Of a stretch of DNA of 64,000 nucleotides, positions 8,194-54,047 are shown piece by piece; position 1 is the first letter of the stretch; each line of letters opens with the position of its first letter. The position numbers and the translations under genes are program-made. Source of the DNA: an uncultured Candidatus Saccharibacteria bacterium (GTDB lineage Bacteria; Patescibacteriota; Minisyncoccia; Phycocordibacterales; CAIZLB01); contig CAYQJB010000001.1 in assembly GCA_964417855.1 (NCBI GenBank), positions 102,709-166,708 of the forward strand, given 5' to 3'. Below the pieces are notes generated by a model that searched no databases, was not told where the DNA came from, and was given only the letters and a program-made list of their open reading frames with translations.

Positions 8194-8874
8194 TTATTTC
8201 CAATCAATCTCCCTTACTCCACGTTTCTTAAGATATTTATTTGTCTTACTAAAATGCTTGGTACCAAAGAACCCCTTGTATACTGAGAATGGCGATGGAT
8301 GCGCTGCCTCAAGTACAAGATGTTTTTTTGTATCAATTTTTTTACCCTTCTTTTTTGCATAATTTCCCCACAATATAAAAACCAAGCCTTCTCTCTCAGA
8401 AGATAACTTTTCAATTACAAAATCTGTAAATTCCTCCCACCCCTTTTTCTGATGTGACCCTGGAGCATGCGAACCAACAGTTAATGTCGCATTCAAAAGA
8501 AGCACCCCTTGTTTTGCCCATCTAGATAAATCTCCACTTTTCTGTGGAACTATATGTAAATCGTTCTCAATTTCTTTATAAATATTTTTTAACGATGGAG
8601 GTGGCGTAACCCCATCGTTAACAGAGAAGCACAGCCCATTTGCCTGATTTGGACCATGATATGGATCCTGACCAATAATCACCACTTTCACATTCTCAAA
8701 CGAACATAAATTGAAGGCTCTAAAGATGTTTTGTTTTGCTGGATAAGTTTCAACTCCACCCTTCAAATACTCTCCATGAACAAAACTAGATAAAGCCTTA
8801 AAATACGGCTTTTTAAACTCACCCAAAAGAACCTTCTTCCAGGAATCTTCAATTTTGACTTCCTTATCAAACAT
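8194..8874 (-). CDS. ung: Uracil-DNA glycosylase family 1
   Basis: VVIIGQDPYHGPNQANGLCFSV water-activating motif. HPSPFS near the C-terminus. Confidence 0.9.
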   Translation of the reverse strand: MFDKEVKIEDSWKKVLLGEFKKPYFKALSSFVHGEYLKGGVETYPAKQNIFRAFNLCSFENVKVVIIGQDPYHGPNQANGLCFSVNDGVTPPPSLKNIYKEIENDLHIVPQKSGDLSRWAKQGVLLLNATLTVGSHAPGSHQKKGWEEFTDFVIEKLSSEREGLVFILWGNYAKKKGKKIDTKKHLVLEAAHPSPFSVYKGFFGTKHFSKTNKYLKKRGVREIDWK

Positions 8875-8954
8875 TAGCTGTATTATAGGTAAAAAGGCAA
8901 AAAATTCAAATAAGTTTGAAATATCTCAAAAATAAGATATACTGCCACATACAA

Positions 8955-9041
8955 GGAGGATTGGATGAGCGGCTTAAATCAACAGTTTACTAAACTGTCG
9001 GCTTGGAAACAGGCCCGTGAGTTCGAATCTCACATCCTCCG
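8955..9041 (+). tRNA. Class II (long variable arm, Ser-type) tRNA with apparent anticodon ACU. Possible pseudo-tRNA or atypical tRNA-Ser
   Basis: Acceptor GGAGGAT/ATCCTCC. D stem GAT/ATC. Anticodon stem ACAGT/ACTGT with loop TTACTAA. Variable arm GGCTTG-GAAA-CAGGCC. T-arm GTGAGTTCGAATCTCAC. CCA not encoded. Confidence 0.65.
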
Positions 9042-9184
9042 CAAAATAATGGGCATAGCCCATATATTTTGCGAGAGTGCAGAATAGGTTGCGAAGCGAC
9101 CGTAATTCTGCCTCCGCAAGTCATATTACCCTTAAAATTTGACACCCTCTGTATCTTTGTTAAACTATAGGTACAAATAGACTT

Positions 9185-9310
9185 TTAGTCGCAACCCCAA
9201 GCTTTTCCAAGAAGCTTGGGGATTAAATTTACAACATTTTCTATAATCTTATTATATTCAGAAGTATTTAGCCTACCCATTCTTAAGCCTAATCTTTTTG
9301 CATCATATAG
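9185..9310 (-). pseudogene. Truncated 3' fragment (about 41 codons) of a MazF/PemK-like toxin gene, paralogous to 10823..11239
   Basis: Minus-strand translation LYDAKRLGLRMGRLNTSEYNKIIENVVNLIPKLLGKAWGCD* aligns with the C-terminus of the full copy (RLYDSRRLGPRIGKLDKIGYNDVIKNIVNFIPKPLVETWGSD*). The 3'-most ~50 nt have the highest nucleotide identity, estimated by eye at about 80%. Confidence 0.55.
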
Positions 9311-9407
9311 CGCGGCAGAGACACCTGAAAAATAAAAAACCCACCCAATAGCTGACCCCTAGGCCTAAAACTATTGTGTGGGTTATTTTTATGTCAACCT
9401 TCCCCAA

Positions 9408-9686
9408 CTAGCGAGTCAACACTCCAGTCCGATGAAACCAATTCAATAGCATTGCTGTTAACCATCCAACCACATACCCAACAATGAATGTAAATATAAT
9501 CAAAGTCAGAGCGATACTAAATGAAAATGGCTGTACCTGAAATGGATTGTTAACAAAATGTAATCCAAATATCCAATCCATATAAATCTGGGCCCATCCG
9601 ATAAGCACAAAAAGACTCCAACATAAGTGAAATCCTCCCATTATACTTCCTGTAGCTAGACCTACTTTATTTTTATTAAGATTCAT
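9408..9686 (-). CDS. Small integral membrane protein (2-3 TM helices), unknown function
   Basis: 92-aa hydrophobic ORF followed by hairpin 9344..9385. Confidence 0.4.
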   Translation of the reverse strand: MNLNKNKVGLATGSIMGGFHLCWSLFVLIGWAQIYMDWIFGLHFVNNPFQVQPFSFSIALTLIIFTFIVGYVVGWLTAMLLNWFHRTGVLTR

Positions 9687-9691
9687 GAGTG

Positions 9692-10168
9692 TTATTTATT
9701 AAGTTTTATTTTTACTGATTTCTCCTTTGACCCCTCAACAACGGGCATCGTAACCACAAGTACACCATCCTTATATTCCGCTTCTGTCTTAGAAGAATCT
9801 ACAGCTTTTGGTAGTCTTACAGATCGAGAAAAGGAACCCCTCTTTATCTCCTTACTGTAGTAATCCTTTTTATCAACCTCCTTTTCTTCCTCCCTGCTGC
9901 CAGAAATTGTTAACATGTCATCCTCCAGTGAAATATCAAGTTCGTCAGACTTAATTCCAGGCAAGCTCATTTTTGCAATAACTTTATCTTTTTCTTCGTA
10001 AATATCGACAGCAAGATCCATACCCAATTTAGGCATAACCGGAAAAGATGGGAAAATGCGATCATCAAAAAATTTATCTACCTCACCAAATGGTTCCCAT
10101 TTAATTATTTGCATAATATTAATTATTTTAATCGTTCCACTAATATAATATACTATCGCTCTAGGCAA
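9692..10168 (-). CDS. Hsp20/alpha-crystallin family small heat-shock protein
   Basis: Alpha-crystallin domain (DIYEEKDKVIAKMSLPGIKSDELDISLEDDMLTISG ... EAEYKDGVLVVTMP). Real start probably the internal Met near 10114. Confidence 0.8.
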   Translation of the reverse strand: MPRAIVYYISGTIKIINIMQIIKWEPFGEVDKFFDDRIFPSFPVMPKLGMDLAVDIYEEKDKVIAKMSLPGIKSDELDISLEDDMLTISGSREEEKEVDKKDYYSKEIKRGSFSRSVRLPKAVDSSKTEAEYKDGVLVVTMPVVEGSKEKSVKIKLNK

Positions 10169-10234
10169 TTGATGATCGACCTATATATGGTAATTATCTC
10201 GCACTGCAAAAAAAAAGCAAACTATGCATAAATA

Positions 10235-10768
10235 ATGTATAGTTTAAATATGAAAAAATTGCTTTATACAGAAGCTGGGCCAAATGGAACTGCATACAAA
10301 AAAGGAGAATGGGAGAAGTTTGCCATACACAATGAAAATGAAATAAAGGGCTTTTTTGGCGAATACAGATTTCTGAGTAATTTCTGGCCAGCAAAAGTAT
10401 TTCTAGATAATGTAGAGTATTCAAGCGTAGAACTTGCATATCAGGCGGCAAAATGGAAACCTGAGTCCAGACAATTTTTCTCTACATGTACAGAATTAGA
10501 TTCAATAGATTTCAATAGACAAAATATACCAGATGGATACCCTACAGCTATATGGGATTCAATAAAACTATCTATAATGGAAGATTTAGTTAAGCAAAAA
10601 TTTGACCCAAAAATTAATCCTGAGAATTATCAAAAACTCCAATCTACAAACAACAAACATCTTGAAGAAATGAATTGGTGGGGTGACATATTTTGGGGAA
10701 CAACAGAAAATGGAGATGGAGAAAATAATCTCGGTAAACTACTAATGGCAGTACGCAAAAATATCTAA
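10235..10768 (+). CDS. NADAR (YbiA-like, DUF1768) domain protein
   Basis: FFGEYRFLSNFWPAKV...VEYSSVELAYQAAKW...NNLGKLLMAVR matches the NADAR N-glycosidase signature. Confidence 0.7.
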   Translation: MYSLNMKKLLYTEAGPNGTAYKKGEWEKFAIHNENEIKGFFGEYRFLSNFWPAKVFLDNVEYSSVELAYQAAKWKPESRQFFSTCTELDSIDFNRQNIPDGYPTAIWDSIKLSIMEDLVKQKFDPKINPENYQKLQSTNNKHLEEMNWWGDIFWGTTENGDGENNLGKLLMAVRKNI

Positions 10769-10822
10769 CTGTGTATTTGACATCCTTGTTTGATTTGATA
10801 GAATTCAAATACAAATCGACGC

Positions 10823-11239
10823 TTAGTCGCTACCCCAAGTCTCCACCAGAGGCTTGGGGATAAAATTTACTATATTTTTAATAACATCGTTATACCCTAT
10901 TTTATCCAGCTTTCCAATTCTAGGACCTAGCCTTCTACTATCATAAAGCCTTATATGAGAAATCATTACTGATCTAGTCACTGATTTTAATTGGACTTTA
11001 ATATAATACTTATTATCCTTATTTTGACTAGTCAAAGGAATACCCAAAAATAAATTTCTATTAAACTTTTTAAACACCAAAACGGGTCGTGAAAAAGTAT
11101 CGCTTTTCCCGTTCTCTTCATCACCTATGTTTACTCCAATTGAACACCAAAAAACATCCCTTTCTTTAATTGAAGGAAATCTTAATCTGACATCTAAACC
11201 ACTCTTTTTCACAGACCATTTTTCGAAGTCTTTTTCCAC
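10823..11239 (-). CDS. MazF/PemK-family endoribonuclease-like toxin with about 25-aa N-terminal extension. No cognate antitoxin gene detected
   Basis: RDVFWCSIGVNIGDEENGK...RPVLVF...FLGIPLTSQ...SVMISHIRLYDSRRL parallels the MazF/EndoA core (GDV..D..P..G.E....RPVLV...AIVCPITS...S.IL.EQIR). Confidence 0.55.
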   Translation of the reverse strand: MEKDFEKWSVKKSGLDVRLRFPSIKERDVFWCSIGVNIGDEENGKSDTFSRPVLVFKKFNRNLFLGIPLTSQNKDNKYYIKVQLKSVTRSVMISHIRLYDSRRLGPRIGKLDKIGYNDVIKNIVNFIPKPLVETWGSD

Positions 11240-11310
11240 TAATTAATTTTAGCAAAATCACATGAGTTTTTGATAAATAAATTCTAAAGAAAAACGAAAC
11301 AAAATAATTA

Positions 11311-11715
11311 CTAGGAAAGCTTGGATGTACAGAAAGCACACCTTGTTGCCTCTTTTGGAATCTCACTCAAACATTCCGGGCATTCCTTCTTTTTTGGTTC
11401 CAACTTTTTCAAATCGCGCTTAGCTCTTGCGATTAATATATTTATTGGAGTTAGAACAAAAAAATAAACAGAGAAAACGATTATGAAAAATGACATTAGT
11501 GAATTTATGAAGTCTCCAACCATAAATTTACTGTCGTTGATTGTAAAGAAGATGCTTGAAAAATCAGGAGACTTAACCACAGCCCCAATCAAAGGAGTAA
11601 TCAAGTCCTTAACAATAGCTTCCACAATCTTACTGAAAGCAGCTCCAACAGCAACTCCAACTGCCAAAGTAATCATGTTATCTCTTAATATAAATTCTTT
11701 AAATCCTTTTATCAT
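11311..11715 (-). CDS. mscL: Large-conductance mechanosensitive channel MscL with C-terminal zinc-ribbon-like extension
   Basis: MIKGFKEFILRDNMITLAVGVAVGAAF is the MscL TM1 signature. C-terminus has CPEC...CAFC. Confidence 0.85.
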   Translation of the reverse strand: MIKGFKEFILRDNMITLAVGVAVGAAFSKIVEAIVKDLITPLIGAVVKSPDFSSIFFTINDSKFMVGDFINSLMSFFIIVFSVYFFVLTPINILIARAKRDLKKLEPKKKECPECLSEIPKEATRCAFCTSKLS

Positions 11716-11789
11716 ATTTTTTTATTATATTCCTATTCTATCCTTAAACAGAATAACGTCAACTTTTAGCTCCCTATTATTTGCAGATA

Positions 11790-12233
11790 TTAATTGAAAT
11801 CTACTTCAAATCTATACATTCCCATTCCACATGTTCCATTTAGTATACCGGCAGCTTGGCTTCCAACATCAATATCCGTTGAACCAGTTTGTGGTAATAT
11901 TTGATTAACATTCAAACTTGCAATTCTTATAGACGAGGAGCAATCAAATGTACCTCTAGTTTTGAATCTTATACTAGTTGGAATACCAGCCTTAGCTATA
12001 CTCTTACTAGGATTATATCCACCCCTAACATCAATTTCAATAATTTGCTTTCCATCTACCACCGTGACATTACTCGCGTTACTATCTGTTTCTCCTGTTC
12101 CATTCACACCCCCAGTAATTCCAGACGCCCCATTGTTTCCACTCGATGAAACTATGAATGCCACTATAATTAAAAGTAAGGCAAATATTACTGCTGCTAT
12201 GGTTGTTTTCATATATTGTGTTTTATCGGACAT
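11790..12233 (-). CDS. Secreted/membrane-anchored protein of unknown function in copper cluster (C-terminal GTCGMGMY motif)
   Basis: N-terminal TM/signal, Gly/Ser/Thr-rich linker, beta-rich domain. Co-oriented and adjacent to the HMA/copA genes. Confidence 0.35.
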   Translation of the reverse strand: MSDKTQYMKTTIAAVIFALLLIIVAFIVSSSGNNGASGITGGVNGTGETDSNASNVTVVDGKQIIEIDVRGGYNPSKSIAKAGIPTSIRFKTRGTFDCSSSIRIASLNVNQILPQTGSTDIDVGSQAAGILNGTCGMGMYRFEVDFN

Positions 12234-12238
12234 AAAGA

Positions 12239-13366
12239 TTAAAAATTAAAGATTGGTGAAATAAACCCAATCGCCACCAAGCTATTTATTAAATTGAAGA
12301 TAGCAAACATAATTACAATAAGACCAGCCGTCTTAAAGAATATCCCCTGTTTTGTGCTATTTTTTATACTAAATGAACTAAAGCTAATAAGTGCGAGAAC
12401 TGGAAGCGTACCTAACGCAAAGGAAAGCATTGTTAAGGTACCGCCCATAAAACTACCTGTTGTTAAACTATATAATTGCATTGACTGAGTAAATCCACAA
12501 GGTAAAAAGAAAGTTGCAATACCTACGAGTAATGGAGTTAAGGTGTGATTTAATTTTGATACGCCGTGCGCTCTCTGTGAAATAAATCTTGGCATCCCCG
12601 GTTGTAGTTTTTTAGCCCAAGGAAAAACATCGAGCAAATTTATACCTAAGATGAACATTACAACGGCTATCAATATTCCGAGAATAAATGTTGCATAAGC
12701 ACTTAATGTAAATGCACTTCCTACAGCACCAATTACTCCACCCAAAATAAAGAACGATATCAAACGCCCTCCATGAAACATTATTTGAGGTTTAATTCTA
12801 TCTCCTTCTTTTGCAAAAGTAGCAGACATTGAAAGTAATAGACCACCAACAACTGCCATACATGATGAAAGTGATGCAATTATTCCGACTACAAACGATG
12901 TACCATATGTCACATTTCCTCCGCCAACAAGATTTATAAGGCCAACTTTTTGAAGTAGTAAAAATAAAATTAGAAAACCAAGTGCGACAGGACCTGCGAT
13001 TTTAAAATCAGACCATTTTGAAACGCTTGCTCCTTTTGTGTGCTGAGAATTCAGAACACCTCCATCTTTAGACCCAAACACTTCTTTATGTTCCTCTCCA
13101 GAAGAAATTTTATATCCATGCTTTTCTACAAGTAACGACAACTCTTTTGCAATATCTTCCTCACTCTTACCTTTGAAATTTCCAATCACTTCAACACATC
13201 CCCCACCTAAATTTGCTACAGCTTTTTCCACCATTGCATGATCATTTAATTCAGTTTCAGTTAGAAGTACACAGGCGTTACAATGCATTCCCTTGATAAA
13301 GAATTTATATTTTTTAGACCCATCTATTTCTTCCTGCATTCTACCCGTATTATTTTGATTATGCAT
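12239..13366 (-). CDS. Heavy-metal-associated (HMA, MxCxxC) domain fused to polytopic membrane permease-like domain
   Basis: N-terminal FFIKGMHCNACV HMA motif, then about 8 TM helices with a Cys-containing TM segment (SLSSCMAVVGG). Confidence 0.55.
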   Translation of the reverse strand: MHNQNNTGRMQEEIDGSKKYKFFIKGMHCNACVLLTETELNDHAMVEKAVANLGGGCVEVIGNFKGKSEEDIAKELSLLVEKHGYKISSGEEHKEVFGSKDGGVLNSQHTKGASVSKWSDFKIAGPVALGFLILFLLLQKVGLINLVGGGNVTYGTSFVVGIIASLSSCMAVVGGLLLSMSATFAKEGDRIKPQIMFHGGRLISFFILGGVIGAVGSAFTLSAYATFILGILIAVVMFILGINLLDVFPWAKKLQPGMPRFISQRAHGVSKLNHTLTPLLVGIATFFLPCGFTQSMQLYSLTTGSFMGGTLTMLSFALGTLPVLALISFSSFSIKNSTKQGIFFKTAGLIVIMFAIFNLINSLVAIGFISPIFNF

Positions 13367-13367
13367 A

Positions 13368-15725
13368 TTATTTTAATTTTTTAGTTTCAAGTCTTAGTGA
13401 GTTTGTCACAACAGAAACACTACTTCCGGCCATTGCCAATCCTGCGAAAACGGGATTCAGAGTTATACCCCATATTGGATACAGTAACCCAGCAGCTACA
13501 GGAATTCCAATTATATTATAAATAAATGCCCAGAAAAGATTTTGCTTTATTGTTCTCATTGTAGTTTGAGAAAGATCAAACGCCTGTGACAGTTTATTTA
13601 AGTCCCCATGTAAAAGCGTAATGCCAGATGACTCAATAGCAACATCAGTTCCTGTAGCCATAGCGATTCCAACATCAGCTTGAACCAAAGCCGGAGCATC
13701 ATTAATTCCGTCTCCCACCATTGCTACTTTTTTACCTTCTGCCTGAAGCTCTTTAATTTTTCCAGCCTTCTCAGCAGGTAATACTTCTGAAATCACATTA
13801 TCGATATTTGCTTGCTTGGCAATATACATTGCTGCCAAATGATTATCTCCGGTAAGCATCACTACTTTGATTCCACGCTTATGAAGTTTTGAAATCGCCT
13901 CCACTGACTCTTCTTTTAGAGTATCGCTAAGTGCAATTAATCCAATTTTTTGCGAATCAATCTCCACAATAACCACGGTCTTACCTTGTTCTTGTAATTC
14001 TTTTATCTTTTCGATTTCTTGCCCTCTACCAACATGACTTATCTCATTTAAATTTGGTTTGTGAACATAAATAATTTTCCCCTCACCTTCTCCTCTCACA
14101 CCAACTCCTTCAAGTGCAATAAAATTTTCTATCTTAATAAGAGTAATATTTTTTTCAATTGATTTATTAACGATAGCTTCAGCAAGAGGGTGTTCTGAAA
14201 GTTTTTCAACACTGGCTGCAAATTGCAAAATATGATCATCGCTGAATTCCTCATGCAAAATAATAACATCAGTTACTTCTGGCTTTCCTTTTGTAATTGT
14301 TCCTGTCTTATCAAGTACCACCGTATCAACATTACTTAATTTCTCAAGAGCCTCAGCATCCTTAATCAGGATTCCGTATTCAGCCCCCTTCCCAACCCCA
14401 ACAATGATTGCTGTTGGAGTTGCAAGTCCTAGGGCACATGGGCAAGCAATAACTAATATTCCAACAAAAGCTAAAATTCCAAAAGAAAGTGCCGACGAGA
14501 AACCAAGAAACATTGTTCCAACAGTTAGCCATACAGCAAGAGTGAGTATTGATACACCAAGAACAATAGGAACAAATACTGCAGATATTTTATCAGCAAG
14601 CGCTTGTATGGGTGCTTTGGAGCCCTGTGCCTCCTCTACCATTCTAATAATTTGTGACAAAAGTGTGTCTGCGCCAACTTTTGTGGCAATAAATTTAAAA
14701 TTACCTTGTTTGTTAATCGTTGCACCAACAACCAAATCTCCAACTTTTTTTTCAGCAGGAATAGACTCCCCAGTAATCATAGATTCATCTACGCTAGACA
14801 CACCTTCAATTATTTTCCCATCAACTGGAATTTTTGCTCCGGGTTTCACGATAACGATATCTCCAATCTGCACTTCATTTATAGATACTTCAACTTCAAT
14901 TCCATCTTTTAAGACAAGAGCTATCTTTGCCTGCAGTCCAATTAATTTTTCTATTGCCTCTCCTGTTTGAAGTTTAGATTTTGCTTCAAGATATTTTCCA
15001 AATATTACAAAACCAATTACAACAATCGTAACATCAAAATATGTATATTCTGGAAGTTGCAACGCAAAAGCGGCTTGAGGAAATAGAGTTATAAAAATAC
15101 TGTAAATGTATGCAGTTAATGTTCCAATACCAATAAGCGTATCCATATTTGCAACCCTGTATTTTATGAATCTAATAACCCCTTGCAGGAATGGTTGTCC
15201 AATCCAAAAAAGAACTATTGTTCCAAGTATCATTGTAATTGAATTAAACAATGACATTGAAATAGGTACCTCTGAAATGTACGATGAAAGCAAAGTCTTC
15301 ATCAAGATATTCCACACCATGACAATAAATACTAAAATAGCCACGGGCAAAACAAACCAAATTTTATACCTCATCTCTGACAGCTCCTTATTTTTTTCTT
15401 CTTTTGATTGTCCAATACCTGTGTGAACACGATGTTCCTCCTCACTCATATTCTCCATACCTGGTCCCATACCATGATCTTCTACACGACTCATACCGTG
15501 AATTGCACTTTCATTTTCACCACTAAGTGTATAGCCGAGTTTTTCTATTTCATTATTCATTCTTTCTATTGATGTTTTTTCTGGATCAAATTCAACTACC
15601 GCTTTTTCAGTTGCAATGTTAACATTGACGTCCCCCACCCCATCTAATGTACCAATCTTTTTTGAAATTATTGCAGCACAACTAGCGCAATGCATACCTT
15701 TGATTTTTAATATTTGTTTTCTCAT
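13368..15725 (-). CDS. copA: Copper-translocating P1B-type ATPase
   Basis: N-terminal [19 protein letters not shown] motif [18 protein letters not shown] phosphorylation site. [11 protein letters not shown] hinge. Confidence 0.9.
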
Positions 15726-15748
15726 GTTTATATATAGTGAATTTTGAA

Positions 15749-15803
15749 TTTTGGGGTCAGGCGATTTTGGTCGTAGACCTAAGTCGTGTGCCTGACCCCA
15801 AAA
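15749..15803. repeat. Second copy of GC-rich palindromic element (ttttggggtcaggc ... gcctgaccccaaaa, 27-nt loop) between csoR and copA
   Basis: 14-nt arms identical to the element at 8158..8191. Lies in the csoR-copA intercistronic region. Confidence 0.55.
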
Positions 15804-15806
15804 CTT

Positions 15807-16097
15807 TTATTTTCTCTTAAGCTTATATACTTTTAGAATCTCAGCTTTTGCCTTTTCTGTTTGACCTTGTGCAACCTGCCTAAGAACACAATGTCCCAAA
15901 TGATGCTCTAAAAGAAGATCTTCAACGTTAGATAGACCTTGTTTTGCAGCTGAAGTCTGAGTAATTACATCGATGCAATATGTATCGTTTTCGATCATTT
16001 GATATAACCCTCTGATTTGACCTTCTATTAATTTTAGACGGCGCAGAATTTTATCTTTCTTTTCATCTTTCTTGATATCTGTTTTTACTGATTTCAT
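15807..16097 (-). CDS. csoR: CsoR/RcnR-family copper-sensing transcriptional repressor
   Basis: LKLIEGQIRGLYQMIENDTYCIDVITQ...HHLGHCV contains the Cys-His-Cys Cu(I) ligands of CsoR. Confidence 0.8.
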   Translation of the reverse strand: MKSVKTDIKKDEKKDKILRRLKLIEGQIRGLYQMIENDTYCIDVITQTSAAKQGLSNVEDLLLEHHLGHCVLRQVAQGQTEKAKAEILKVYKLKRK

Positions 16098-16109
16098 ATT
16101 TCATATTTT

Positions 16110-16127
16110 ATACCCCCTAGGGGGTAT
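16110..16127. promoter_or_regulatory. Candidate CsoR operator: GC-rich palindrome ATACCCCCTAGGGGGTAT 13-30 bp upstream of csoR start
   Basis: Perfect 18-bp palindrome, strongly GC-rich in AT-rich DNA. Resembles the TACCC-N-GGGTA-type CsoR operators. Confidence 0.5.
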
Positions 16128-16167
16128 AGTCAATTACCTATAACTAGATCCTTCTAAAATCATAAGT

Positions 16168-16752
16168 TTGGTATTTCTTTATATTTTCTTTATAAACACA
16201 GGTCCTGCTGGATATGGTAAACTTAGGTACATAGACATGAAAAAAGAACCAAAAACAATAGCAGTAAATGACAAAATGCAGAAGAACTATACATATGCAT
16301 TGGTTGAACCTGTTGGTAAAAATTTTGACCCTATCTTCAAGCCTCAACTTACACCTAAAGAAATGCTTGAACTGGGTGTTTTTGGTGGAAAGTACATGAC
16401 AGACTGTGGTAAGGAGTTTCCTAAGGACTGGTACAAAGAAGCAAAACTCTCCCCTCTCAAATACGATGCCAAAATTAATTATTTTAAAACAAGAGCAAGT
16501 CAACCACTTTCTGTTTGGCGTGCCAAGGGATGGATTTATAAAGAAGATCCAAGAGGTTGGTTTCAATGGTATTGCAGATATTATATGGGGAGAAGGATTC
16601 CTGCTGAAGATAAAAGACAAATAAAAAGATGGTTTAATATGAGACGTCATGTTTCTCAAATAGTTAACAATTGTAGAACAGCAGATTTTAGCTGTCACAC
16701 CAGACAGAGGCAAGCAGTTCTTCACTGGGCATATGATAGTAGAAAATTTTAA
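16168..16752 (+). CDS. Conserved hypothetical protein (Trp/Arg-rich motif GWFQWYCRYYMGRR). Probable start Met at 16237
   Basis: Balanced composition, unlike the Cys/Phe-rich antisense ORF 16144..16791. No family recognised. Confidence 0.45.
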   Translation: MVFLYIFFINTGPAGYGKLRYIDMKKEPKTIAVNDKMQKNYTYALVEPVGKNFDPIFKPQLTPKEMLELGVFGGKYMTDCGKEFPKDWYKEAKLSPLKYDAKINYFKTRASQPLSVWRAKGWIYKEDPRGWFQWYCRYYMGRRIPAEDKRQIKRWFNMRRHVSQIVNNCRTADFSCHTRQRQAVLHWAYDSRKF

Positions 16753-19410: not shown

Positions 19411-19523
19411 ATAGTTTCTGGTTAGTATGAATTATAGAATGAAGAAAAATCAGTGCATCTCACTGATTTAAATCCGTTTTTTATTATATACCTCTCCAAA
19501 AAATATTCAAGAAAAACCTTTTG

Positions 19524-19596
19524 TGCGAGCACTAGGATTCGAACCTAGGACCGGTCGTGTATAAGACGACTGCTCTACCAACTGAGCTATGCTCGC
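19524..19596 (-). tRNA. tRNA with anticodon UAU (AUA-decoding tRNA-Ile2 type)
   Basis: GCGAGCA acceptor. D-arm TAGCTCAGTTGGTAGAGC. Anticodon stem GTCGT/ACGAC with loop CTTATAC. T-arm CTAGGTTCGAATCCTAG. No CCA. Confidence 0.8.
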
Positions 19597-22348: not shown

Positions 22349-22798
22349 ATGAAAATTTTAGTCAAAAATCAAAAAGTCTTCTTTAATTACGATATACAGG
22401 ACAAACATGTTGCTGGTATTGAGCTTTTTGGTCATGAAGTAAAATCAATCAAGGGAGGCCGAGGTAGTATGGAGGGTTCATATATTATAGTTAGAGGAGG
22501 AGAAGCCTTTATAATAGGGCTAGATATACCAGCTTTTCAGGCAAACAATACACCTGATGGGTATGACCCAAAAAGGAACAGAAGATTATTGCTAAAGAAG
22601 AAGGAAATACTAGCTTTAGCAGAAAAGGAGAAGGAAAAAGGCTTGACGATAGTACCAATATCGTTGTATAATGATGGGCGCAGAATCAAACTTGAGTTTG
22701 GTATTGCAAAGGGAAAGAAGAAATTTGACAAACGTCAGACTATCAAAACCCGCGAGAGTAACAAGGAAATCCTTAGAACTCTCAAGGACGGAAGATAG
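22349..22798 (+). CDS. smpB: SsrA-binding protein SmpB
   Basis: FFNYDIQDKHVAGIELFGHEVKSIK ... RNRRLLLKKKEI matches SmpB conserved motifs. Immediately upstream of tmRNA. Confidence 0.9.
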   Translation: MKILVKNQKVFFNYDIQDKHVAGIELFGHEVKSIKGGRGSMEGSYIIVRGGEAFIIGLDIPAFQANNTPDGYDPKRNRRLLLKKKEILALAEKEKEKGLTIVPISLYNDGRRIKLEFGIAKGKKKFDKRQTIKTRESNKEILRTLKDGR

Positions 22799-22841: not shown

Positions 22842-23239
22842 GGGGATGACATGCTTCGACACATGTCTGTATTCTTTATGTGCGTAACCGAGTGTCCTAG
22901 AATCTCGTTAAACTTCAGGAAACCTTAGATGCAAAAGCCCAAAAAGCAGTTGTTTCTCCATTTTTTGGAGTAAACAGCTTTGCATTTGCAACGGTTAGAG
23001 CCTAGCTCGCCCTCTTGCAACGTTCTTGTCTACTCTTTCTGTAGGTAGATAAAGGGCGCAATATATACAGGATAGGTTTGTAGAGTTTCTTAGACTACAA
23101 TCCAAAATCAATAAGATCGGTGACGCTGCGTTTTGATACTTTTATAGTATCGTCACTTAAAACCAAAAAATTGTCTACGTTACGTAGACTCATAAAGAAA
23201 CAACGTGTGCACGCGGGTTCAATTCCCGCCATCTCCACC
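22842..23239 (+). ncRNA. ssrA: tmRNA (ssrA), standard one-piece
   Basis: 5' end GGGGATGACATGCTTCGACA (compare E. coli GGGGCUGAUUCUGGAUUCGACG). 3' tRNA-like end GCGGGTTCAATTCCCGCCATCTCCACC with G3:U70 pair (compare GCGGGUUCAACUCCCGCCAGCUCCACCA). Candidate resume codon GCA at about 22930 preceded by UAG-AU as in E. coli UAG-UC-GCA. Putative tag reading frame ends ...AFATVRA-UAG. Confidence 0.85.
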
Positions 23240-23410
23240 GACAAACATAAGCCACCAAGCGTAAGCGAGGTGGTTTTATGTTTGGCGGATAAAGATGACC
23301 GCCAGGAATTGAAAGGCGGAAGAAAAGCTCTGGGAGAGGTTTTCTGAGCCGGGGTCGCGAGTACTTAGCGAAGACGAGCCATGCGAAGTCTGAGCTTAGT
23401 AACTCGTGAC

Positions 23411-23429
23411 CAATTCCCGCCATCTCCAC
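23411..23429 (+). repeat. 19-nt perfect direct repeat of the tmRNA 3' end (caattcccgccatctccac; first copy 23220..23238). att-like footprint
   Basis: Exact duplicate 173 nt downstream of the tmRNA gene end, followed by terminator 23433..23461 + T5. Confidence 0.7.
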
Positions 23430-23432
23430 AAA

Positions 23433-23466
23433 AAAATCTAACCGCCGAAAGGCGGTTAGATTTTTG
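23433..23466 (+). terminator. Intrinsic terminator (tctaaccgcc gaaa ggcggttaga + TTTTT) after the ssrA region
   Basis: Perfect 10-bp stem, GAAA loop, T-run. Confidence 0.7.
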
Positions 23467-23516
23467 TAGTATGCTGCCGAACGCAGCCAGAGAATCGCAA
23501 CATAACTTTGATTAAA

Positions 23517-24296
23517 TTAATTTAAGTATAAAGTTTTAGTTTCTTTATTTAAAATATAATAAAGCATTCTTTTGTCATTTTCTCTAAGGTACCCCAATTT
23601 ATTAAATAGAACTGAATAATTTCCAAAACTTGTATTATTCAACCAAACTGTCGCAGTAACATCAAGAGAGGTTCCATTGGCTATAAAACAGTATTGATTG
23701 CCTTCAAAGGGAATATTTTTCTTTGAAGTAGAGCAATTAACTTTGGATGATTGTATCCCCTTAAATTCCCCTCCTTTAATTGAATAAGAAATTCCAGTCA
23801 GACCCTTAGTTGAATCTGTTGTGGTCATTGGGATGTAAAAATCATCCCCTTTTGCAGTAACACGCAGACGAATTTCATAACCTCCATATCCAGGATATAT
23901 TGTTTGCATTAAGTTTGGTTCTTCAACGACAAGGTTTGGATTGTTGTCTTGGACAGCCTCTGTGTAAGCTGGTTTTACTATTTGCTTGTCTTCAGTGGGA
24001 GACACAACTGTTGTCTTCTTATTTACAGATGTATTTGTATTAACATTAGATTTCGTAGTGGCTTTAATATTAGACGTAGATGAAGTCGACCTTTCCATGG
24101 TCTTATTATCATCTTTTAATTTATTTTCCAACTCTGCAATTTTATTTTCTAATAAAGAATTTTTTATCATCATGTCTTTTTGATAATCTCCATTATTTTT
24201 CCAACCAAAAATGTTTCCAAAATAAACAAGTGCCCCACAAATAATTAAAATGGTGACAACAATGGTTATTAGATAAATCATGAATTTATTTTTCAT
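23517..24296 (-). CDS. Membrane-anchored hypothetical protein (TM, coiled coil, Ser/Thr/Asn-rich linker, C-terminal beta-rich domain)
   Basis: 259-aa ORF with N-terminal TM helix. No recognised family. Confidence 0.45.
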   Translation of the reverse strand: MKNKFMIYLITIVVTILIICGALVYFGNIFGWKNNGDYQKDMMIKNSLLENKIAELENKLKDDNKTMERSTSSTSNIKATTKSNVNTNTSVNKKTTVVSPTEDKQIVKPAYTEAVQDNNPNLVVEEPNLMQTIYPGYGGYEIRLRVTAKGDDFYIPMTTTDSTKGLTGISYSIKGGEFKGIQSSKVNCSTSKKNIPFEGNQYCFIANGTSLDVTATVWLNNTSFGNYSVLFNKLGYLRENDKRMLYYILNKETKTLYLN

Positions 24297-24846
24297 ACTA
24301 TAAGATTAAACTAAACTATAAAATTTACAAGTTGATTGTCCTAAAATATCATTACCTTAGCCTACTAGTGCGAGTTTAATTCCCCTATTGTAATACCTAA
24401 AATACAAAATACTACCTACAAACATAACTGTTATTTAACTGTTGTTGCATTAAAATCGCCTCAGACGCCTCAAATACCAAAGAACGTAGTTGGTTCCAAC
24501 TTTCAGATACAATGTCCACAAAATTAAGGAACGAAGTGACTATAATTTTGTAGGACTCATCCGAGCACAAGCGAGGAGGAGTATCACAAAAAAATAGTTA
24601 AAACCCGTGCAAGCGGGTTTTTCCTTTACACAATAATTACACCGTAGAGGAAAACCGTACATATTTTACAAACCCCACATTGACAAATCTCAATTAAATG
24701 CTTTAATAATACTTGAATCAGCAGATCTTTGAGTGACGCATGGGGGGGGTGGAATTTGACGGTATCTTTGAGGATATTTATATGTCTTTAAAGTTGCCGT
24801 CAAACAAAACAGCAATCAACAACAAACCATTGTCACACATACAAAA

Positions 24847-25233
24847 ATGAAAATATCGACGTTCCTCCTAATTGTCATAAGCGCAATTTTAATCAAGGCA
24901 TTCACCCTACACATAGAATCCTCAAAAATTATATATGAACAACTCCGGTATTCCGAAGTTCAAACGGACAGGGCGCTAGAAAACCTTACTGCTTCAAACC
25001 CAACATTGACCAACGATTACTTGGTGTCAATGAAGGAATTGTCTAGTCAGATTAAGAAGGCTAATGATTTTAATCGCAAGACCAATGCAATTTTTGGCAG
25101 CACATTCTTCTTTCTTTTTCTACTTTTATACAATCTCGCTGTGCTCCCTATCTTTCGATGGAGGCGGCATCAGAGAAGAGTAAGACGTTTACTTGAAAGA
25201 CAACATGCAACAGCACAGTCCGCAAGCGCGTAA
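24847..25233 (+). CDS. Small membrane protein (two TM segments), hypothetical
   Basis: 128 aa. Promoter-like TTGACA/TAATAAT upstream. Terminator hairpin 25236..25268. Confidence 0.4.
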   Translation: MKISTFLLIVISAILIKAFTLHIESSKIIYEQLRYSEVQTDRALENLTASNPTLTNDYLVSMKELSSQIKKANDFNRKTNAIFGSTFFFLFLLLYNLAVLPIFRWRRHQRRVRRLLERQHATAQSASA

Positions 25234-25351
25234 TTACCCCCCTGCATCATTCTGATGCAGGGGGGTTTATTGACACCTCTACCCTTCCGCTATAAGCTAT
25301 CATCAGCTAAACAAACTGCCAGCGACAGTACAAAACAGAACCTTTAAAATC

Positions 25352-25714
25352 ATGGACTCATTCAATGACCGTCTACTTTATTATATTGGTTTACTTTCCA
25401 ATGCTGACGACTCATACTCCCCCATTCAAATTAAATCACTAGCACTCGGCGTGTTTGTCACCGAAGACCGTCGTAATAGAGTTACTATCTTCTTTGATTC
25501 AGAAGAGTGGGAACTTGTGGACAATGGACAACAACAATGGATTACAGCAGGTAAAGTAAGTAAATATTATGGTATTGGAGCATTATGTTTTAATGGACAT
25601 GAAATGAACTTCTCTAATGTTTGTCGTTGGGCGAAAAAGAGCCTCCGTCCAATTTTTACAGGCACATGGAACCCCAAAGATACCCAAGCTAATATCCGTC
25701 TAGCGTTGAGCTAA
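25352..25714 (+). CDS. Hypothetical protein
   Basis: 120-aa ORF, balanced composition. Downstream long-range stem aaaatcccc/gggggatttt. Confidence 0.4.
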   Translation: MDSFNDRLLYYIGLLSNADDSYSPIQIKSLALGVFVTEDRRNRVTIFFDSEEWELVDNGQQQWITAGKVSKYYGIGALCFNGHEMNFSNVCRWAKKSLRPIFTGTWNPKDTQANIRLALS

Positions 25715-25824: not shown

Positions 25825-26112
25825 ATGGCTCCAAAATTCTCTTCCAAAAAACTAACCAGAAGTCACACTACCCTAACAGATGCAGCTGGTGTAATTGTTA
25901 AGCATGCATCTCAAATGCCGGAGGTTTCAAAGATAAGTTTGGGAATTATCAAACCAATTTCTGTTGGAAAACAGAGAATAAAATTCCTCCCCATAACTGG
26001 TGGTGTAAAATCTATAATTCGAGGAAACTCATCGATTCAAGAAATTTTTATATATACAAAAGAACCTAAAACTACAATCAAAGTTTTAACGGATTATTTT
26101 AATAGTAAGTAA
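25825..26112 (+). CDS. Hypothetical protein
   Basis: 95-aa ORF. No family recognised. Confidence 0.35.
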   Translation: MAPKFSSKKLTRSHTTLTDAAGVIVKHASQMPEVSKISLGIIKPISVGKQRIKFLPITGGVKSIIRGNSSIQEIFIYTKEPKTTIKVLTDYFNSK

Positions 26113-50312: not shown

Positions 50313-51506
50313 TTAGGCTACGATCTTAGTTACAACGCCGGCTCCTACAGTTCTACCTCCCTCGCGAATAGCGAATCTTGTATTGTCTTCAAGAGCAATT
50401 GGGGCTACCAATTTAACCTTGAAAGTAACTGTATCACCAGGCATAACCATGTCTACGCCCTCCTTTAGAGTAACCTCTCCTGTTACGTCAGTTGTACGTA
50501 CGTAGAACTGAGGTTTGTAACCTGAGAAGAATGGAGTGTGTCGACCGCCTTCTTCCTTCTTAAGGATATAGACTTCTGCTTCAAAATCTGTATGTGGCTT
50601 AACTGATCCTGGCTTTGCTAGAACTTGACCTCTTGCAAGATCATCCTTCTTAACACTTCTTAGTAGAATACCAGCGTTGTCTCCAGCTTGACCTTCTGAC
50701 AATTGCTTGTTGAACATTTCAATACCTGTAACAACTGTTTTTTGAGTATCATGTAGTCCGATGATTTCAATTTCTTCACCGATCTTGATTATACCTTTTT
50801 CAATTTTACCTGTAACAACTGTTCCTCTTCCTTCAATTGAGAAAATATCTTCAATAGGCATAAGGAAAGGCTTATCAGTCTCTCTAACTGGTTGTGGAAT
50901 ATAGTTATCTAGAGCGTCAACTAATTCAAGAACCTTCTTTGACCATTCATCATCAATACCTGGAGCTTCAAGTGCCTTAAGCGCTGAACCTCTGATAACT
51001 GGTGCATCTTCGTCAAATCCGTTCTTTGCTAGAAGCTCTCTGATTTCTGCCTCAACTAGGTCAAGCATGTCTGCATCATCAACCATGTCACACTTGTTCA
51101 TGAATACAACAATCTTTGGAACACCAACTTGCTTTGCAAGTAGAACGTGCTCGCGAGTTTGTGGCATAGGTCCGTCAGTAGCAGCAACAACCAAGATTGC
51201 GCCGTCCATTTGAGCAGCTCCTGTGATCATGTTCTTGATGTAGTCGGCGTGGCCTGGTGCATCAATGTGAGCATAGTGTCTTGCGTTTGTAGTGTACTCA
51301 CTGTGTGAAAGTGAAATTGTAATACCACGAGCCTTTTCCTCTGGGGCCTTGTCAATATCTCCGATTGACTTAATTGTAGCCTTCATACCTGCTCTGTTAA
51401 GAACATTAAGAATAGCTGCAGTTAATGTAGTCTTTCCGTGATCAACGTGTCCAATTGTACCCACGTTAACGTGAGGCTTTGAACGATCAAAAATTTCTAT
51501 TGCCAT
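50313..51506 (-). CDS. tuf: Elongation factor Tu
   Basis: [26 protein letters not shown]-motifs. Confidence 0.95.
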
Positions 51507-51901
51507 ATATTTGCTTGATAATTAAATGAATATATCGATATTTATATGGATATCTCCATAAATCTTTATACTCACCAATTAATAAAAATTAAATTAATAA
51601 GTTTCTAAATTTTATCCCCAGTGCTTCTCTCAGTAGTTTAGCTTAATTATGTTTGATTCTTAATACTGCCTTAAATCAAAAAGAAGATTGGGATAAAAAA
51701 CCGCCAAAAGGCGTCTAATGGATAATATCAGAAGGTGGGGGTTTGTCAATGTCAAAGCTATAACCTACCCCCCCCCACTTAAGGTTAATCAACCCTGAAT
51801 TCTGTTTCGGTCTTTTGACCATCGTCAGACAAGATACACATCTTATGACAGAACCCGTTCACTCAACGGGCAGAGTTGCACAGTTTATGTGCTTTATTAC
51901 G

Positions 51902-52141
51902 CTATTCACATAACATTTCGAGGTATTTATCATCAAAATTTTCTACCTCATTCCAATCTTCACCTTGTCTTTTGACAAAAATGAAGTCTTCAACCCTTAA
52001 GGTTGTATTTGAAAAGACGAAGGCACAGCCTTCCTCTAGGGTCTTAACGGTTTGGAAATAAGCCATATAGGCAAATCCACCACCCGGGGCAAAACCCCAG
52101 CACTTAACCCATGTTACCTTTGCTTTTTGTGTGTTTTGCAT
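51902..52141 (-). CDS. Small hypothetical protein (80 aa, MQNTQKAKVTWVKCWGFAPGGGFAYMAYF...)
   Basis: Balanced composition. AGGA 13 nt upstream of ATG at 52141. About 60 nt downstream of the hammerhead motif. The longer track ORF (to 52246) overlaps the ribozyme. Confidence 0.3.
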   Translation of the reverse strand: MQNTQKAKVTWVKCWGFAPGGGFAYMAYFQTVKTLEEGCAFVFSNTTLRVEDFIFVKRQGEDWNEVENFDDKYLEMLCE

Positions 52142-52203
52142 AGTTATAAACGTCCTAACTTTAGAGATTAAGGCACTCGTAGCTACACAAAACGTTAAAA
52201 AGA

Positions 52204-52258
52204 ACCACTGTTTCGCTTTTTTAAGCTCATCAGTCGAAGTACGCACTTCGAGACAGAG
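52204..52258 (-). ncRNA. Hammerhead ribozyme motif, minimal type III (stem III open)
   Basis: Minus strand 5'-CCUCUG-UC / UCGAAGU-GCGU-ACUUCGA / CUGAUGA / GCUU-AAAA-AAGC / GAAA / CAGUGG-3'. Full catalytic core (CUGAUGA, GAAA, cleavage site GUC), G10.1-C11.1 and C15.2-G16.2 pairs, 7-bp stem I, 4-bp stem II, 6/7-bp stem III. Confidence 0.5.
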
Positions 52259-53149
52259 GACGGATAGAACGTCTATCCGTGATTTACTACAAGTACTCTA
52301 TCGAGCAGTTGTAATTTCTGTTCAAAAGGTAGTTTTCTCTACCTCGGCTTTTCATCTCGCGATAAAAGCAGAACTCAAAGCAATTATTTGCTTTGAACGT
52401 ACTCGCGATAATCCGCAAGGGACATCACGAGCCCGTCAACGACGACGTAGGTCATGGTTTATACTTTTTGAAATGTTCATTGCTATTAACACACTGTATT
52501 TTGGCTAATATTTATTAATTCTATTTAAGGACTCAAAATCAGCTCGATTTTGGATTAAATTAACAGTGTTTACTTATCTGTGTTGTAGTATAGCCATGTT
52601 CATATTTTTGTCAAGATGTTTTGACACTTTGTTTTTATTTTGTCATTTGTACCCTTTTATATAGCCATATTTAATCAATATAAAAGTAAATTGATAACAA
52701 CAAAACTCTATAAAGGGTATACAAAATTAGAAAATATATTATATTATGTTTTTTTATATTGCCAATCTAATTACCCAAGAATAAGGTCGTTTTAGCTTAA
52801 ATCTATTAAATGTCTAAATTGCTTGACAAAAGAATCAGACATGCTACATTGTGATACGGAATTTGACTGTACTTTCGGCTATAAAGCCGACAGATCAAAG
52901 TGTTCTAACCCAAAAGTGCAATGCCCGATTAACCCTAAAGGAAAGGTGGCTTGTCGTGAACCTAGCCGGGTTTTCACGACAGGCCTCTGAGTACTAAAAA
53001 AGGGACTTGTTTATAACTTCTGGGCATAGTAACCGCAAGCACACCATATACACCACCACCACAATGCATGATTAATTAGAATGATTGTCCTTTTTGAAAA
53101 CCCTTCATATTTGTAAACCTCCCCACCAAGGTAGTTCACAAACAAAAAA

Positions 53150-53177
53150 AGCTCGGTTCCTACCCAGGAACCGAGCT
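53150..53177 (-). terminator. Intrinsic terminator after the TrmB-like gene (agctcggttcc taccca ggaaccgagct + U7 on minus strand)
   Basis: Perfect 11-bp stem, A7 on plus strand upstream. Confidence 0.7.
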
Positions 53178-53198
53178 AATTTTTTACCTAATTTTTTC

Positions 53199-54047
53199 TT
53201 ATTTACCTTCCTCTATATTTTTAAAGGCTAATTCAAACAAAGAGGTTAGGGTTTCCGCAAAATCCTTATTATAAACAATCATTCCACCCAATTTTGATCC
53301 CAAAGTAGCTATTCTTACCTTATTGTTGTAAATACTAATATCGCAACTTAAAGGATACTTTTTACCATCTACGAACAACCTATTCCCCAAGTTAGCACTT
53401 CTGTCAATTTCCCCTTTTGAATACGTATATATTGATTTACCGGAAATTTTCTTATCTACCCTTATTTTACGGAATCTATTACTATCGGCCTCTGAAAACA
53501 GACTTTCTATTAAATCCTTTGGATAAATCATATACATAGTGCCGCCTTTGTCATCTTTTGATTGGAAAAGCTCCTCAGTCATACTTATAACGCCCTCTTT
53601 TCCTTCAAAAAATTTAACTACAGGCTTTTCAGCATCCTCTCTGTAAATACTCTTAAGTTGTGGAACTATATCCTTAAGTCTTTTACTTTGTTCATCCAGC
53701 TGTATTTTACGTCTTTCAATATAAGTCTCCAGTCTTTCTGGTGGTTCAGCTTGGTATCTAACCTTTTTATCAACTAAAACTTCAAATATTAGCCCTTTAT
53801 TTGAAAGCGATTCAAGTACTGGATAGATAGTTGTACGATTAATTTTAGTCTTCTCAGCTAAATCAAGTACAGAATCATTGTCTACCTCCAAAAGAGACAG
53901 GTAAACCTTTGCCTCTTTCTCTGATAAACCTAAATCTTCAAGATATTTTTCAAACATAAGCATATTATACCATAGAATATTTAAATTTCGTTTTAATAGA
54001 CAATTTTTGGTTTTAAATTGTACTGCAAATGTAGGATTATTTACCAA
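53199..54047 (-). CDS. TrmB-family transcriptional regulator (N-terminal wHTH, C-terminal effector domain)
   Basis: MFEKYLEDLGLSEKEAKVYLSLLEVDNDSVLDLAEKTKINRTTIYPVLESLSNKGLI matches the TrmB HTH. Start likely Met at about 53957. Confidence 0.65.
   Translation of the reverse strand: MVNNPTFAVQFKTKNCLLKRNLNILWYNMLMFEKYLEDLGLSEKEAKVYLSLLEVDNDSVLDLAEKTKINRTTIYPVLESLSNKGLIFEVLVDKKVRYQAEPPERLETYIERRKIQLDEQSKRLKDIVPQLKSIYREDAEKPVVKFFEGKEGVISMTEELFQSKDDKGGTMYMIYPKDLIESLFSEADSNRFRKIRVDKKISGKSIYTYSKGEIDRSANLGNRLFVDGKKYPLSCDISIYNNKVRIATLGSKLGGMIVYNKDFAETLTSLFELAFKNIEEGK

Follow-up and report, generated by a model that had tools for sequence, protein, structure and literature searches.

Introduction

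The 3' ends of tRNA genes and of ssrA, which encodes transfer-messenger RNA (tmRNA), are classic integration sites of genomic islands and prophages, and K. P. Williams reportedly described in 2002 how integrase-encoding islands and prophages use T-loop and 3'-end sublocations within tRNA and tmRNA genes. Duplication of a tRNA or tmRNA end is usually taken to be the scar of such an island. Here, we analyze a duplicated tmRNA end in a 64-kb stretch of DNA (64,000 nt of contig CAYQJB010000001.1, referred to as the window throughout), where it leads to an abundant, constrained and target-matched non-coding element. Group I introns, too, are known from tRNA and tmRNA genes, Patescibacteria among the hosts (PMC13011429; Williams 2002 cited therein), and this Patescibacteria tRNA-intron paper covers group I introns only.

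An earlier reading of the window, made from its letters alone (the sequence-only reading), had found the tmRNA end twice and interpreted the DNA in between as the leftover of an old or largely deleted island. Our analysis indicates that the two tmRNA ends probably flank a complete, small, non-coding structured insertion element that belongs to a family residing at tRNA and tmRNA ends. Insertion at such ends with attL/attR-like repeats is of a known kind; the protein-less, structured, guide-bearing form is not. The element is a member of a large family that is present in no annotation resource searched and is apparently undescribed, and a description of such an element was not found in the literature searched.

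The tmRNA end is present twice at ssrA

The 19-nt sequence CAATTCCCGCCATCTCCAC occurs on the plus strand at 23220-23238 (copy 1) and again at 23411-23429 (copy 2), with a start-to-start spacing of 191 nt. The sequence-only reading had given the same two positions, and exactly two copies are present in the window: a third match was absent with up to three mismatches allowed, the chance expectation is 0.01 matches, and none of 100 shuffles yielded two. By tRNA numbering, the repeat starts at T-loop C56, continues along the 3' strands of the T-stem and the acceptor stem, and stops at position 74. Copy 1 is the functional end of an intact tmRNA gene (22842-23240, plus strand), which matches Rfam RF00023 over its full length (all 374 model positions; 126.9 bits, with 47 as the gathering score; E 3e-49), and in our reading it is also the left end of the inserted unit. 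Copy 2 is the displaced tmRNA end and doubles as the 3' strand of a helix, P1, that is described below. ARAGORN did not call the tmRNA of the window and likewise missed those of several relatives; the gene was therefore located using Rfam and manual assignment of its ends. A putative tag frame, AKAQKAVVSPFFGVNSFAFATVRA*, was read by eye. Upstream lies smpB (22349-22798, plus strand; a 149-aa open reading frame, ORF), a conserved neighbor of ssrA that is recognized as Pfam SmpB in the identical locus L321.

The 173-bp spacer between the two copies proved to be both richer in GC than its surroundings (0.46 versus about 0.33-0.40) and rich in hairpins, folding far more stably than shuffled sequences (z = -9.6), and copy 2 is followed by a strong terminator, a perfect 15-bp hairpin with a T-run (23432-23465), all in agreement with the original description. 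The locus shows no differences over 1842 nt in eight independent assemblies, and the arrangement is therefore not an assembly artefact; these eight assemblies represent the same population, and no empty allele was found among them at the strain level.

Empty and occupied sites in related genomes

We compared the window with 80 loci homologous by SmpB, all of which derive from metagenome-assembled genomes (MAGs) of Patescibacteria (Paceibacteria/Nomurabacteria-like). Comparison with related ssrA loci had been put forward together with the proposal that an insertion into the ssrA 3' end had regenerated the gene end and displaced the original, and the result supports this proposal. In L002 (SmpB 73% identical) the site is empty and the tmRNA end is directly followed by AAAATTAAGGAACGAGG..., whereas L001 (SmpB 82% identical) has a 188-bp insert behind the tmRNA end, then the same 19-mer and the AAAATTAAGG flank shared with L002. 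This pair of filled and empty sites shows that the repeat in the window marks an insertion; as at islands in ssrA, a direct repeat of the 3' segment of the gene is found together with an empty site in relatives. An insert is also present in L003 (SmpB 64% identical), flanked there by that locus's own, different tmRNA end.

Between the window and L001, the two helices that make up the core of the insert (P2 and P3, see below) are unrelated at the same site, with flanks that are 92% identical. Together with the empty site in L002, this contradicts the alternative of a conserved pre-tmRNA trailer, which the sequence-only reading had considered. Occupied ssrA loci are a minority; a match to the covariance model described below was found downstream of ssrA in at least 11 of the 80 SmpB-linked loci.

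Anatomy of the 191-bp unit

The inserted unit spans 23220-23410 (191 bp, from T-loop C56 to ..GTGAC) and is joined to ssrA between U55 and C56. In the 5' to 3' direction it comprises the gene end from C56, its own terminator, a guide, and a conserved P2/P3 core that ends in GTGAC. The tmRNA stays intact because the unit carries a replacement gene end from C56 onward. The general layout of the family is the gene up to U55, the repeat, a terminator-like hairpin, the guide, A-GGC-GGA, P2, GA-GCC-GGGG, P3, GTGAC, and the repeat.

The terminator-like hairpin of the element (23239-23288, plus strand) has a GC stem that is capped by a GUAA loop and enclosed in an extended A/T-tract stem, and is followed by TTTTATGTTT. 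Its arms lie at 23238-23250 and 23276-23288, and equivalent hairpins follow copy 1 in L001 and L003. It is succeeded by a small GGCGG..CCGCC hairpin (23284-23303, plus strand), with AGATG in its loop, ATAAAGATGA, as a degenerate complement to CATCT in the acceptor 3' strand. Better-preserved copies, such as those of L075 and L047, contain the full anti-acceptor sequence GTGGAGATG, and in the family at large a sequence complementary to the acceptor strand, together with a small hairpin, frequently comes after the terminator-like hairpin.

The guide, GGAATTGAA (23305-23313, plus strand), is the exact reverse complement of TTCAATTCC, which covers the T-loop and the 3' strand of the T-stem, and provides the 5' strand of P1. 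Guides are complementary to the first 8-11 nt of the repeat, with 9 nt in the window. A guide that directly copies the 5' half of the T-arm was considered and rejected, as the reverse complement is clear at the non-palindromic T-loop of the tmRNA. The junction and helix P2 follow (23314-23354, plus strand), with the order A-GGC-GGA, a hairpin at 23321-23345, and GA-GCC-GGGG. The GGC at 23315-23317 pairs with the GCC at 23348-23350, a helix that shows compensatory changes, and the GGA, GA and GGGG nucleotides are invariant or nearly so. Helix P3 (23355-23410, plus strand), with strands GUCGCGAGU... and ...ACUCGUGAC, includes a conserved bulged A (23401) and a G.U pair and terminates in GTGAC, the invariant right boundary of the family. 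P1, the pairing of guide and repeat, closes a three-way junction in which the 3' end of the element, ..GAC, directly adjoins the insertion junction at the first base of the repeat; this three-way junction is also predicted by folds of single copies.

We additionally observed a hairpin motif, CC-GA-GC-NNNN-GC-GA-GG, with tandem G.A mismatches under a 2-bp stem and a tetraloop. It is found in the window at 23255-23273, in the element's terminator, and at 24561-24579, in the native ssrA flank, and also tips P3 (GAGCGACGGCGAG) in many modules, for example in L079, L209 and L212. This hairpin might be a protein-binding or stabilizing motif of these genomes.

A family of structured elements with covarying helices

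The inserts share motifs, and an alignment of 16 of them (A1) analyzed with RNAalifold gave two helices, in which 12 of 19 pairs show compensatory changes. With a covariance model of the conserved core (R1), we detected a total of 140 copies in 160 related loci, of which 32 are in the window plus the 80 genome loci and 108 in 80 metagenome loci. Only one copy lies inside the 64-kb window (cmsearch, 23302-23420, 64.4 bits, E 7.5e-17). The elements measure about 100-190 nt, with a core of 80-110 nt. A specific core pattern matched at least 120 stretches in metagenome contigs and had no matches in 2.9 million viral contigs; a loose pattern applied to the viral contigs, CGGGGTCGCG..YGTGAC, returned 120 chance matches in GC-rich phages, which were discarded. 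A core split by an insertion of about 35 nt, between GAGCCGGG and GGTCGCG, was noted at L206 (794-971), with intact copies adjacent.

In the R1 alignment, 97.6% of cells are paired and changes on both sides occur in 14 of 19 pairs; alignment A3 was fitted to the model, which inflates the pairing percentages somewhat. An independent MAFFT/RNAalifold alignment agrees with the model-based helices. The covariation score of 0.437 compares with 0.141 in shuffles (none of 500 reached 0.437) and falls to at most 0.08 when the partners are slid. In P3, compensatory changes are present in 10 of 14 pairs, and one pair is G.U in 96 of 102 distinct rows. A fold with a near-invariant G.U pair assigns the structure to the tRNA-sense strand, either as RNA or as single-stranded DNA. 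For P1, pairing extends over 5.7 of 8 positions compared to 3.96 +/- 0.12 with shuffled partners, and thus the guide tracks the host gene.

Searches of Rfam 15 with E-values up to 10 returned, over the module, only chance hairpin- or terminator-like matches far below their gathering scores, and blastn against plasmids gave no match to the module. Group I and group II introns, hammerhead and other ribozymes, and permuted tmRNA were considered and received no Rfam support, with a weak tmRNA_permuted match (18 bits) being confined to the T-arm.

A second insertion and a serine-recombinase island at the same site

Downstream of copy 2, the sequence that follows the tmRNA in L002, and copy 2 in L001, is displaced by 1090 nt. 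This ancestral flank (24520-24630, plus strand; two hairpins and a terminator) is 92% identical to L001 over 98 nt and 84% identical to L002 over 121 nt by blastn, and 1.28 kb now separate it from the tmRNA. Immediately before this flank lies a degenerate third copy of the acceptor end (24510-24519, plus strand; CAATGTCCAC versus CCATCTCCAC, 8/10 in the alignment), which the sequence-only reading had missed; over 24510-24523 the comparison is ATGTCCACAAAA versus ATCTCCACAAAA, and a repeat search returned it as 12 nt at 92% with a spacing of 1090. The ancestral flank at 24520, preceded by copy 3, identifies 23430-24509 as a second insertion of about 1.09 kb, which contains the bidirectional terminator (23432-23465), a 259-aa ORF and the region upstream of this ORF. 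The one-gene segment would have arrived later and independently, entering at the extreme 3' end of copy 2. The ORF (23517-24296, minus strand) is hypothetical and membrane-anchored; it has no homolog in the 80 related loci, no Pfam match above cut-off and no recombinase domain.

The sequence-only reading had viewed the following 3 kb as remains of the island. This finds support only in part: roughly 1.09 kb are a second, separate insertion, and the DUF2103 gene (25825-26112), infC and rplT are syntenic with L001 and L002. Two further ORFs at 24847-25714 have no homolog in the 80 loci but are located beyond the ancestral flank. The segment at 24520-24630 may be what had been listed as an unassigned non-coding RNA, and might represent either an earlier pre-tmRNA trailer or an independent RNA. 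Elsewhere in the window, ARAGORN called a tRNA-Ser(ACU) at 8955-9042 (plus strand) that lacks Rfam support at the gathering score and is either a false call or an unusual gene, and 51506-53199 comprises 1.7 kb without an ORF of at least 110 aa or an Rfam match at the gathering score.

A classical island is present at the same gene end in one relative. L040 carries a 7.4-kb island in ssrA (8785-16441) with a large serine recombinase (Resolvase and Zn_ribbon_recom), whose C-terminus overlaps the tmRNA end, and with cargo that includes a 581-aa coiled-coil/ATPase-like ORF and looks like that of a defense island. The island is situated between the tmRNA and a pre-existing module unit, which is distal and retains its own degenerate repeat. 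This arrangement indicates that classical islands and modules are separate users of the same site.

These observations bear on the earlier interpretation of the repeats as the attL/attR scar left when a large island or prophage with an integrase was almost wholly deleted. The role of ssrA as a classic integration site, the island of L040 in the same gene end and the additional one-gene insert in the window are all in keeping with such a history. However, the 173 bp are a full-length, high-scoring family member and have exactly the typical size of the family, and the module of L040 is a unit of its own, distal to the island. A remnant of random deletion would not retain covarying helices, which contradicts this explanation for the 191-bp unit. 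No integrase was found around the locus, as had been reported, and a recombinase gene was likewise absent from the 191-bp unit, where no ORF is conserved and helix lengths vary freely. We consider a deletion scar highly improbable, and the 173 bp are instead a complete copy of a conserved structured element whose fold is under selection.

Hosts, junctions and subfamilies

At least 85 of the 140 copies have a co-oriented tRNA or tmRNA called by ARAGORN less than 300 nt upstream, with more than 30 anticodons represented, and further copies are positioned behind tmRNAs that ARAGORN misses. The family is associated with tRNA and tmRNA 3' ends, and in some cases with those of protein genes, in Patescibacteria and some other uncultured bacteria, guide and repeat each being matched to the host gene. 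Among 84 tRNA-adjacent copies, the repeat begins directly after GTGAC in 50, and exactly 19 nt from the RNA end (that is, at C56) in 34. In a second junction class, the repeat comprises the last 3 nt of the tRNA plus flanking sequence, and the guide is complementary to that sequence. In the window, the tRNA-Ile(UAU) gene at 19523-19596 (minus strand) adjoins ftsH in a position that is conserved across the clade; at least nine relatives have a module behind it, and a module was searched for and found absent behind the gene of the window itself.

Protein-coding targets are exemplified by the 3' end of topA, where a module is found in three loci (L220, 5702-5808; L232, 3617-3725; L234, 3501-3614). 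Here, about 80 nt of coding sequence, a zinc-ribbon repeat, are duplicated, the guide matches the first 8 nt of the repeat, and the displaced copy is decaying. A GC-rich subfamily has a self-contained first helix, GAGGCCCGG / CCGGGCC, without a host-derived strand, and is not linked to tRNA genes. Its members (L201, L202, L205, L216, L222, L226, L235, L240, L244, L251 and L261) occur in non-tRNA intergenic contexts, after alaS, miaB-like genes and others; in L251 and L235 the GC-rich module is convergent with a tRNA-linked copy.

Evidence for movement and for a host function

Cores that are 88-97% identical were found on tmRNA, tRNA-Ser, tRNA-Pro, tRNA-Arg and topA, with differing guides and repeats. 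P2 of the window resembles that of L264, which is placed at tRNA-Ser, and the P3 subtype of the window recurs on tRNA-Arg, tRNA-Glu, tRNA-Ile and another tmRNA. Judging from these sequences, target matching changes faster than the core diverges. In L266 (3025-3405, minus strand), three identical tandem units with a period of 137 nt lie behind tRNA-Ile(UAU). In L209 (3076-4108), two identical 190-nt units, each composed of spacer, module, repeat and 35-nt flank, bracket a 652-bp gene, a layout that would be the expected product of a small circle (module plus cargo) integrating into a resident unit. A similar arrangement with a small ORF as cargo is present in L047 (9067-9715).

An alternative that we regard as less probable, though a serious rival, is that the module is a host-useful RNA domain that acts, for example, in processing, stability or termination at the 3' ends of transcription units and has been spread by duplication and recombination. 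The repeat would then be a strand borrowed to close the terminal helix, and the element would be cut out by tRNA-processing enzymes. The sense-strand fold with its conserved G.U pair fits this proposal, as do modules within tRNA operons, including one in L215 that ends 5 nt before the next tRNA, and a set of four tRNAs in L219 that have one module each. In the same vein, copies within one genome are old, diverged and structurally intact, no mobility protein is linked to them, and pairing of guide and anti-acceptor with copy 2 would mimic an acceptor/T minihelix. It is harder to reconcile with a host role that the module is dispensable, given the empty site of L002, the window's tRNA-Ile(UAU) without a module and the minority of ssrA loci occupied, and that non-orthologous variants occupy the same site in close relatives. 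Repeats also reach well past what the helix requires and then decay, identical units occur in tandem or flank cargo genes, topA is among the targets, and a terminator separates the module from the tmRNA in the window. A host function is compatible with mobility, and the element could be a mobile RNA gene.

Proposed mechanism and its weighing

We return to the insertion element as the favored explanation. As the element encodes no protein, a mobilizing enzyme must presumably act in trans. The guide probably selects the target through base pairing, and this pairing would juxtapose the element ends and the target junction for strand transfer, in a three-way junction geometry that may resemble reverse splicing or the ends of IS200/IS605 elements. 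As the mechanism of mobility, we favor guided strand transfer with an enzyme that acts in trans. A circle or tandem form would show the junction of GTGAC with CAATTCCC... and the terminator.

Palindromes formed by gene end, terminator and anti-gene-end are a hint in the primary sequence that suggests snap-back copying, and they underlie a further explanation, namely a mobile element that moves at the RNA level, as a small putative ribozyme core or a retroelement template that enters tRNA or tmRNA transcripts, or is copied off them, and returns to DNA by reverse transcription. Snap-back copying would then give rise to the order of tRNA end, terminator and reverse complement. The palindromes are long and sometimes perfect, with arms of about 29 nt in L075; the unpaired junction nucleotides are highly conserved, cores stay constant as guides change, and the bulged A, 8-9 nt upstream of a boundary that terminates in AC, is reminiscent of group II intron domain VI. 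Yet the module has no Rfam match to ribozymes or to Intron_gpII, a reverse transcriptase was not found near the copies, and the core of 80-110 nt is far below the size of known splicing ribozymes. On balance, we judge movement at the RNA level improbable.

Several points weigh against an insertion element and temper our preference, besides the model-fitted alignment mentioned above. Transposase, integrase and reverse transcriptase genes were not found, and mobility is therefore deduced from comparative patterns only. No recurrent recombinase, transposase or reverse transcriptase was detected near the 140 copies, and clustering of all ORFs within 1.5 kb of them recovered only housekeeping families as recurrent; tblastn with XerD and the L040 serine recombinase returned nothing significant in the window, a weak test with two queries. 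An excised form or a fresh insertion was not observed among the loci compared. Copies within one genome are strongly diverged with the fold kept, which suits a host function at least as well as it does a purely selfish element, and several modules sit inside tRNA operons. The GC-rich subfamily, being self-contained, suggests that the core may function independently of insertion. In several copies the second repeat is short or decayed, and the guide there pairs better with copy 1. At this locus, the tmRNA and the core are separated by an apparently efficient terminator, which speaks against their strong co-transcription. Finally, we can name no mechanism that explains how the guide and the carried gene end are jointly matched to a new target.

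Discussion

Taken further, the data raise the tentative prospect of a new class of protein-less, nucleic-acid-guided mobile element, in which a three-way-junction RNA or single-stranded DNA of about 100 nt would use its guide to pick T-loops or 3' ends of tRNA, tmRNA and some protein genes, restore the gene end on insertion and be rewritten for each target, having colonized a large fraction of tRNA genes in some Patescibacteria lineages; we consider this stronger claim possible, but doubtful. If the guide programs insertion, the element would represent a compact natural system for sequence-directed insertion at gene ends and would add a new factor to genome dynamics in the Patescibacteria, a group with unusually intron-rich tRNA genes. 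If the module is a host RNA domain, it would constitute a widespread, unrecognized step in the tRNA and tmRNA transcript biology of a major uncultured phylum. The units create partial copies of tRNA and tmRNA genes that are able to mislead island finders and tRNA annotation in MAGs.

Among described systems, integrase islands and prophages and their integrase-less derivatives, such as cis-mobilizable elements (CIMEs), share the insertion in the 3' part of an RNA gene and a replacement gene end carried by the element, a direct repeat that begins in the T-loop or at the extreme 3' end and continues to the gene terminus, tandem accretion at one site, and empty sites in relatives. In contrast to them, the element described here has no integrase or any other gene and spans 130-200 bp, and its one-strand, covarying three-helix core with an internal complement of the repeat differs from the attP-arm features of integrase islands.

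Group I introns are likewise structured elements in the tmRNA T-loop and in tRNA genes of the same phylum, with a guide that pairs with exon sequence. Introns interrupt the gene and duplicate nothing, whereas here the gene is intact and its end is duplicated; this difference, the small size of the element and the lack of an RF00028 match led us to reject a group I intron. Group II intron domains V/VI were rejected as well, since a bulged A is present but there is no equivalent of domain V and RF00029 is unmatched. A miniature inverted-repeat transposable element, or another transposon with terminal inverted repeats, is not in agreement with ends (C56... / ...GTGAC) that are not inverted repeats and with a repeat of variable length (5 to more than 30 nt) that in every case reaches the gene end.

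Parallels also exist to the ends of IS200/IS605 insertion sequences, their non-autonomous derivatives, palindrome-associated transposable elements (PATEs), and the REP/REPIN-RAYT system, in which folded ends are strand-specific and the left-flank target is repeated at the right end. An internal guide that pairs with the cleavage or target sequence, fixed orientation and small non-coding copies mobilized in trans are further features in common with IS200/IS605. Guide-target pairing in IS608 involves 4 nt. Here it covers 7-11 nt or more, and up to 80 nt of the host gene end are carried; a Y1/HUH transposase was not found in the 64-kb window or near the other copies.

Integron attC cassettes resemble the family in their conserved structure and variable sequence, their one-strand fold and their conserved extrahelical bases, and also in that units sometimes lie on both sides of a single cargo gene (L209, L047) and are arrayed beside a fixed site. 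They differ in that integron integrase, attI and the R''/R' consensus have no counterpart here and most units are geneless, and in that the fixed site of the present family is the end of an RNA gene, which is regenerated.

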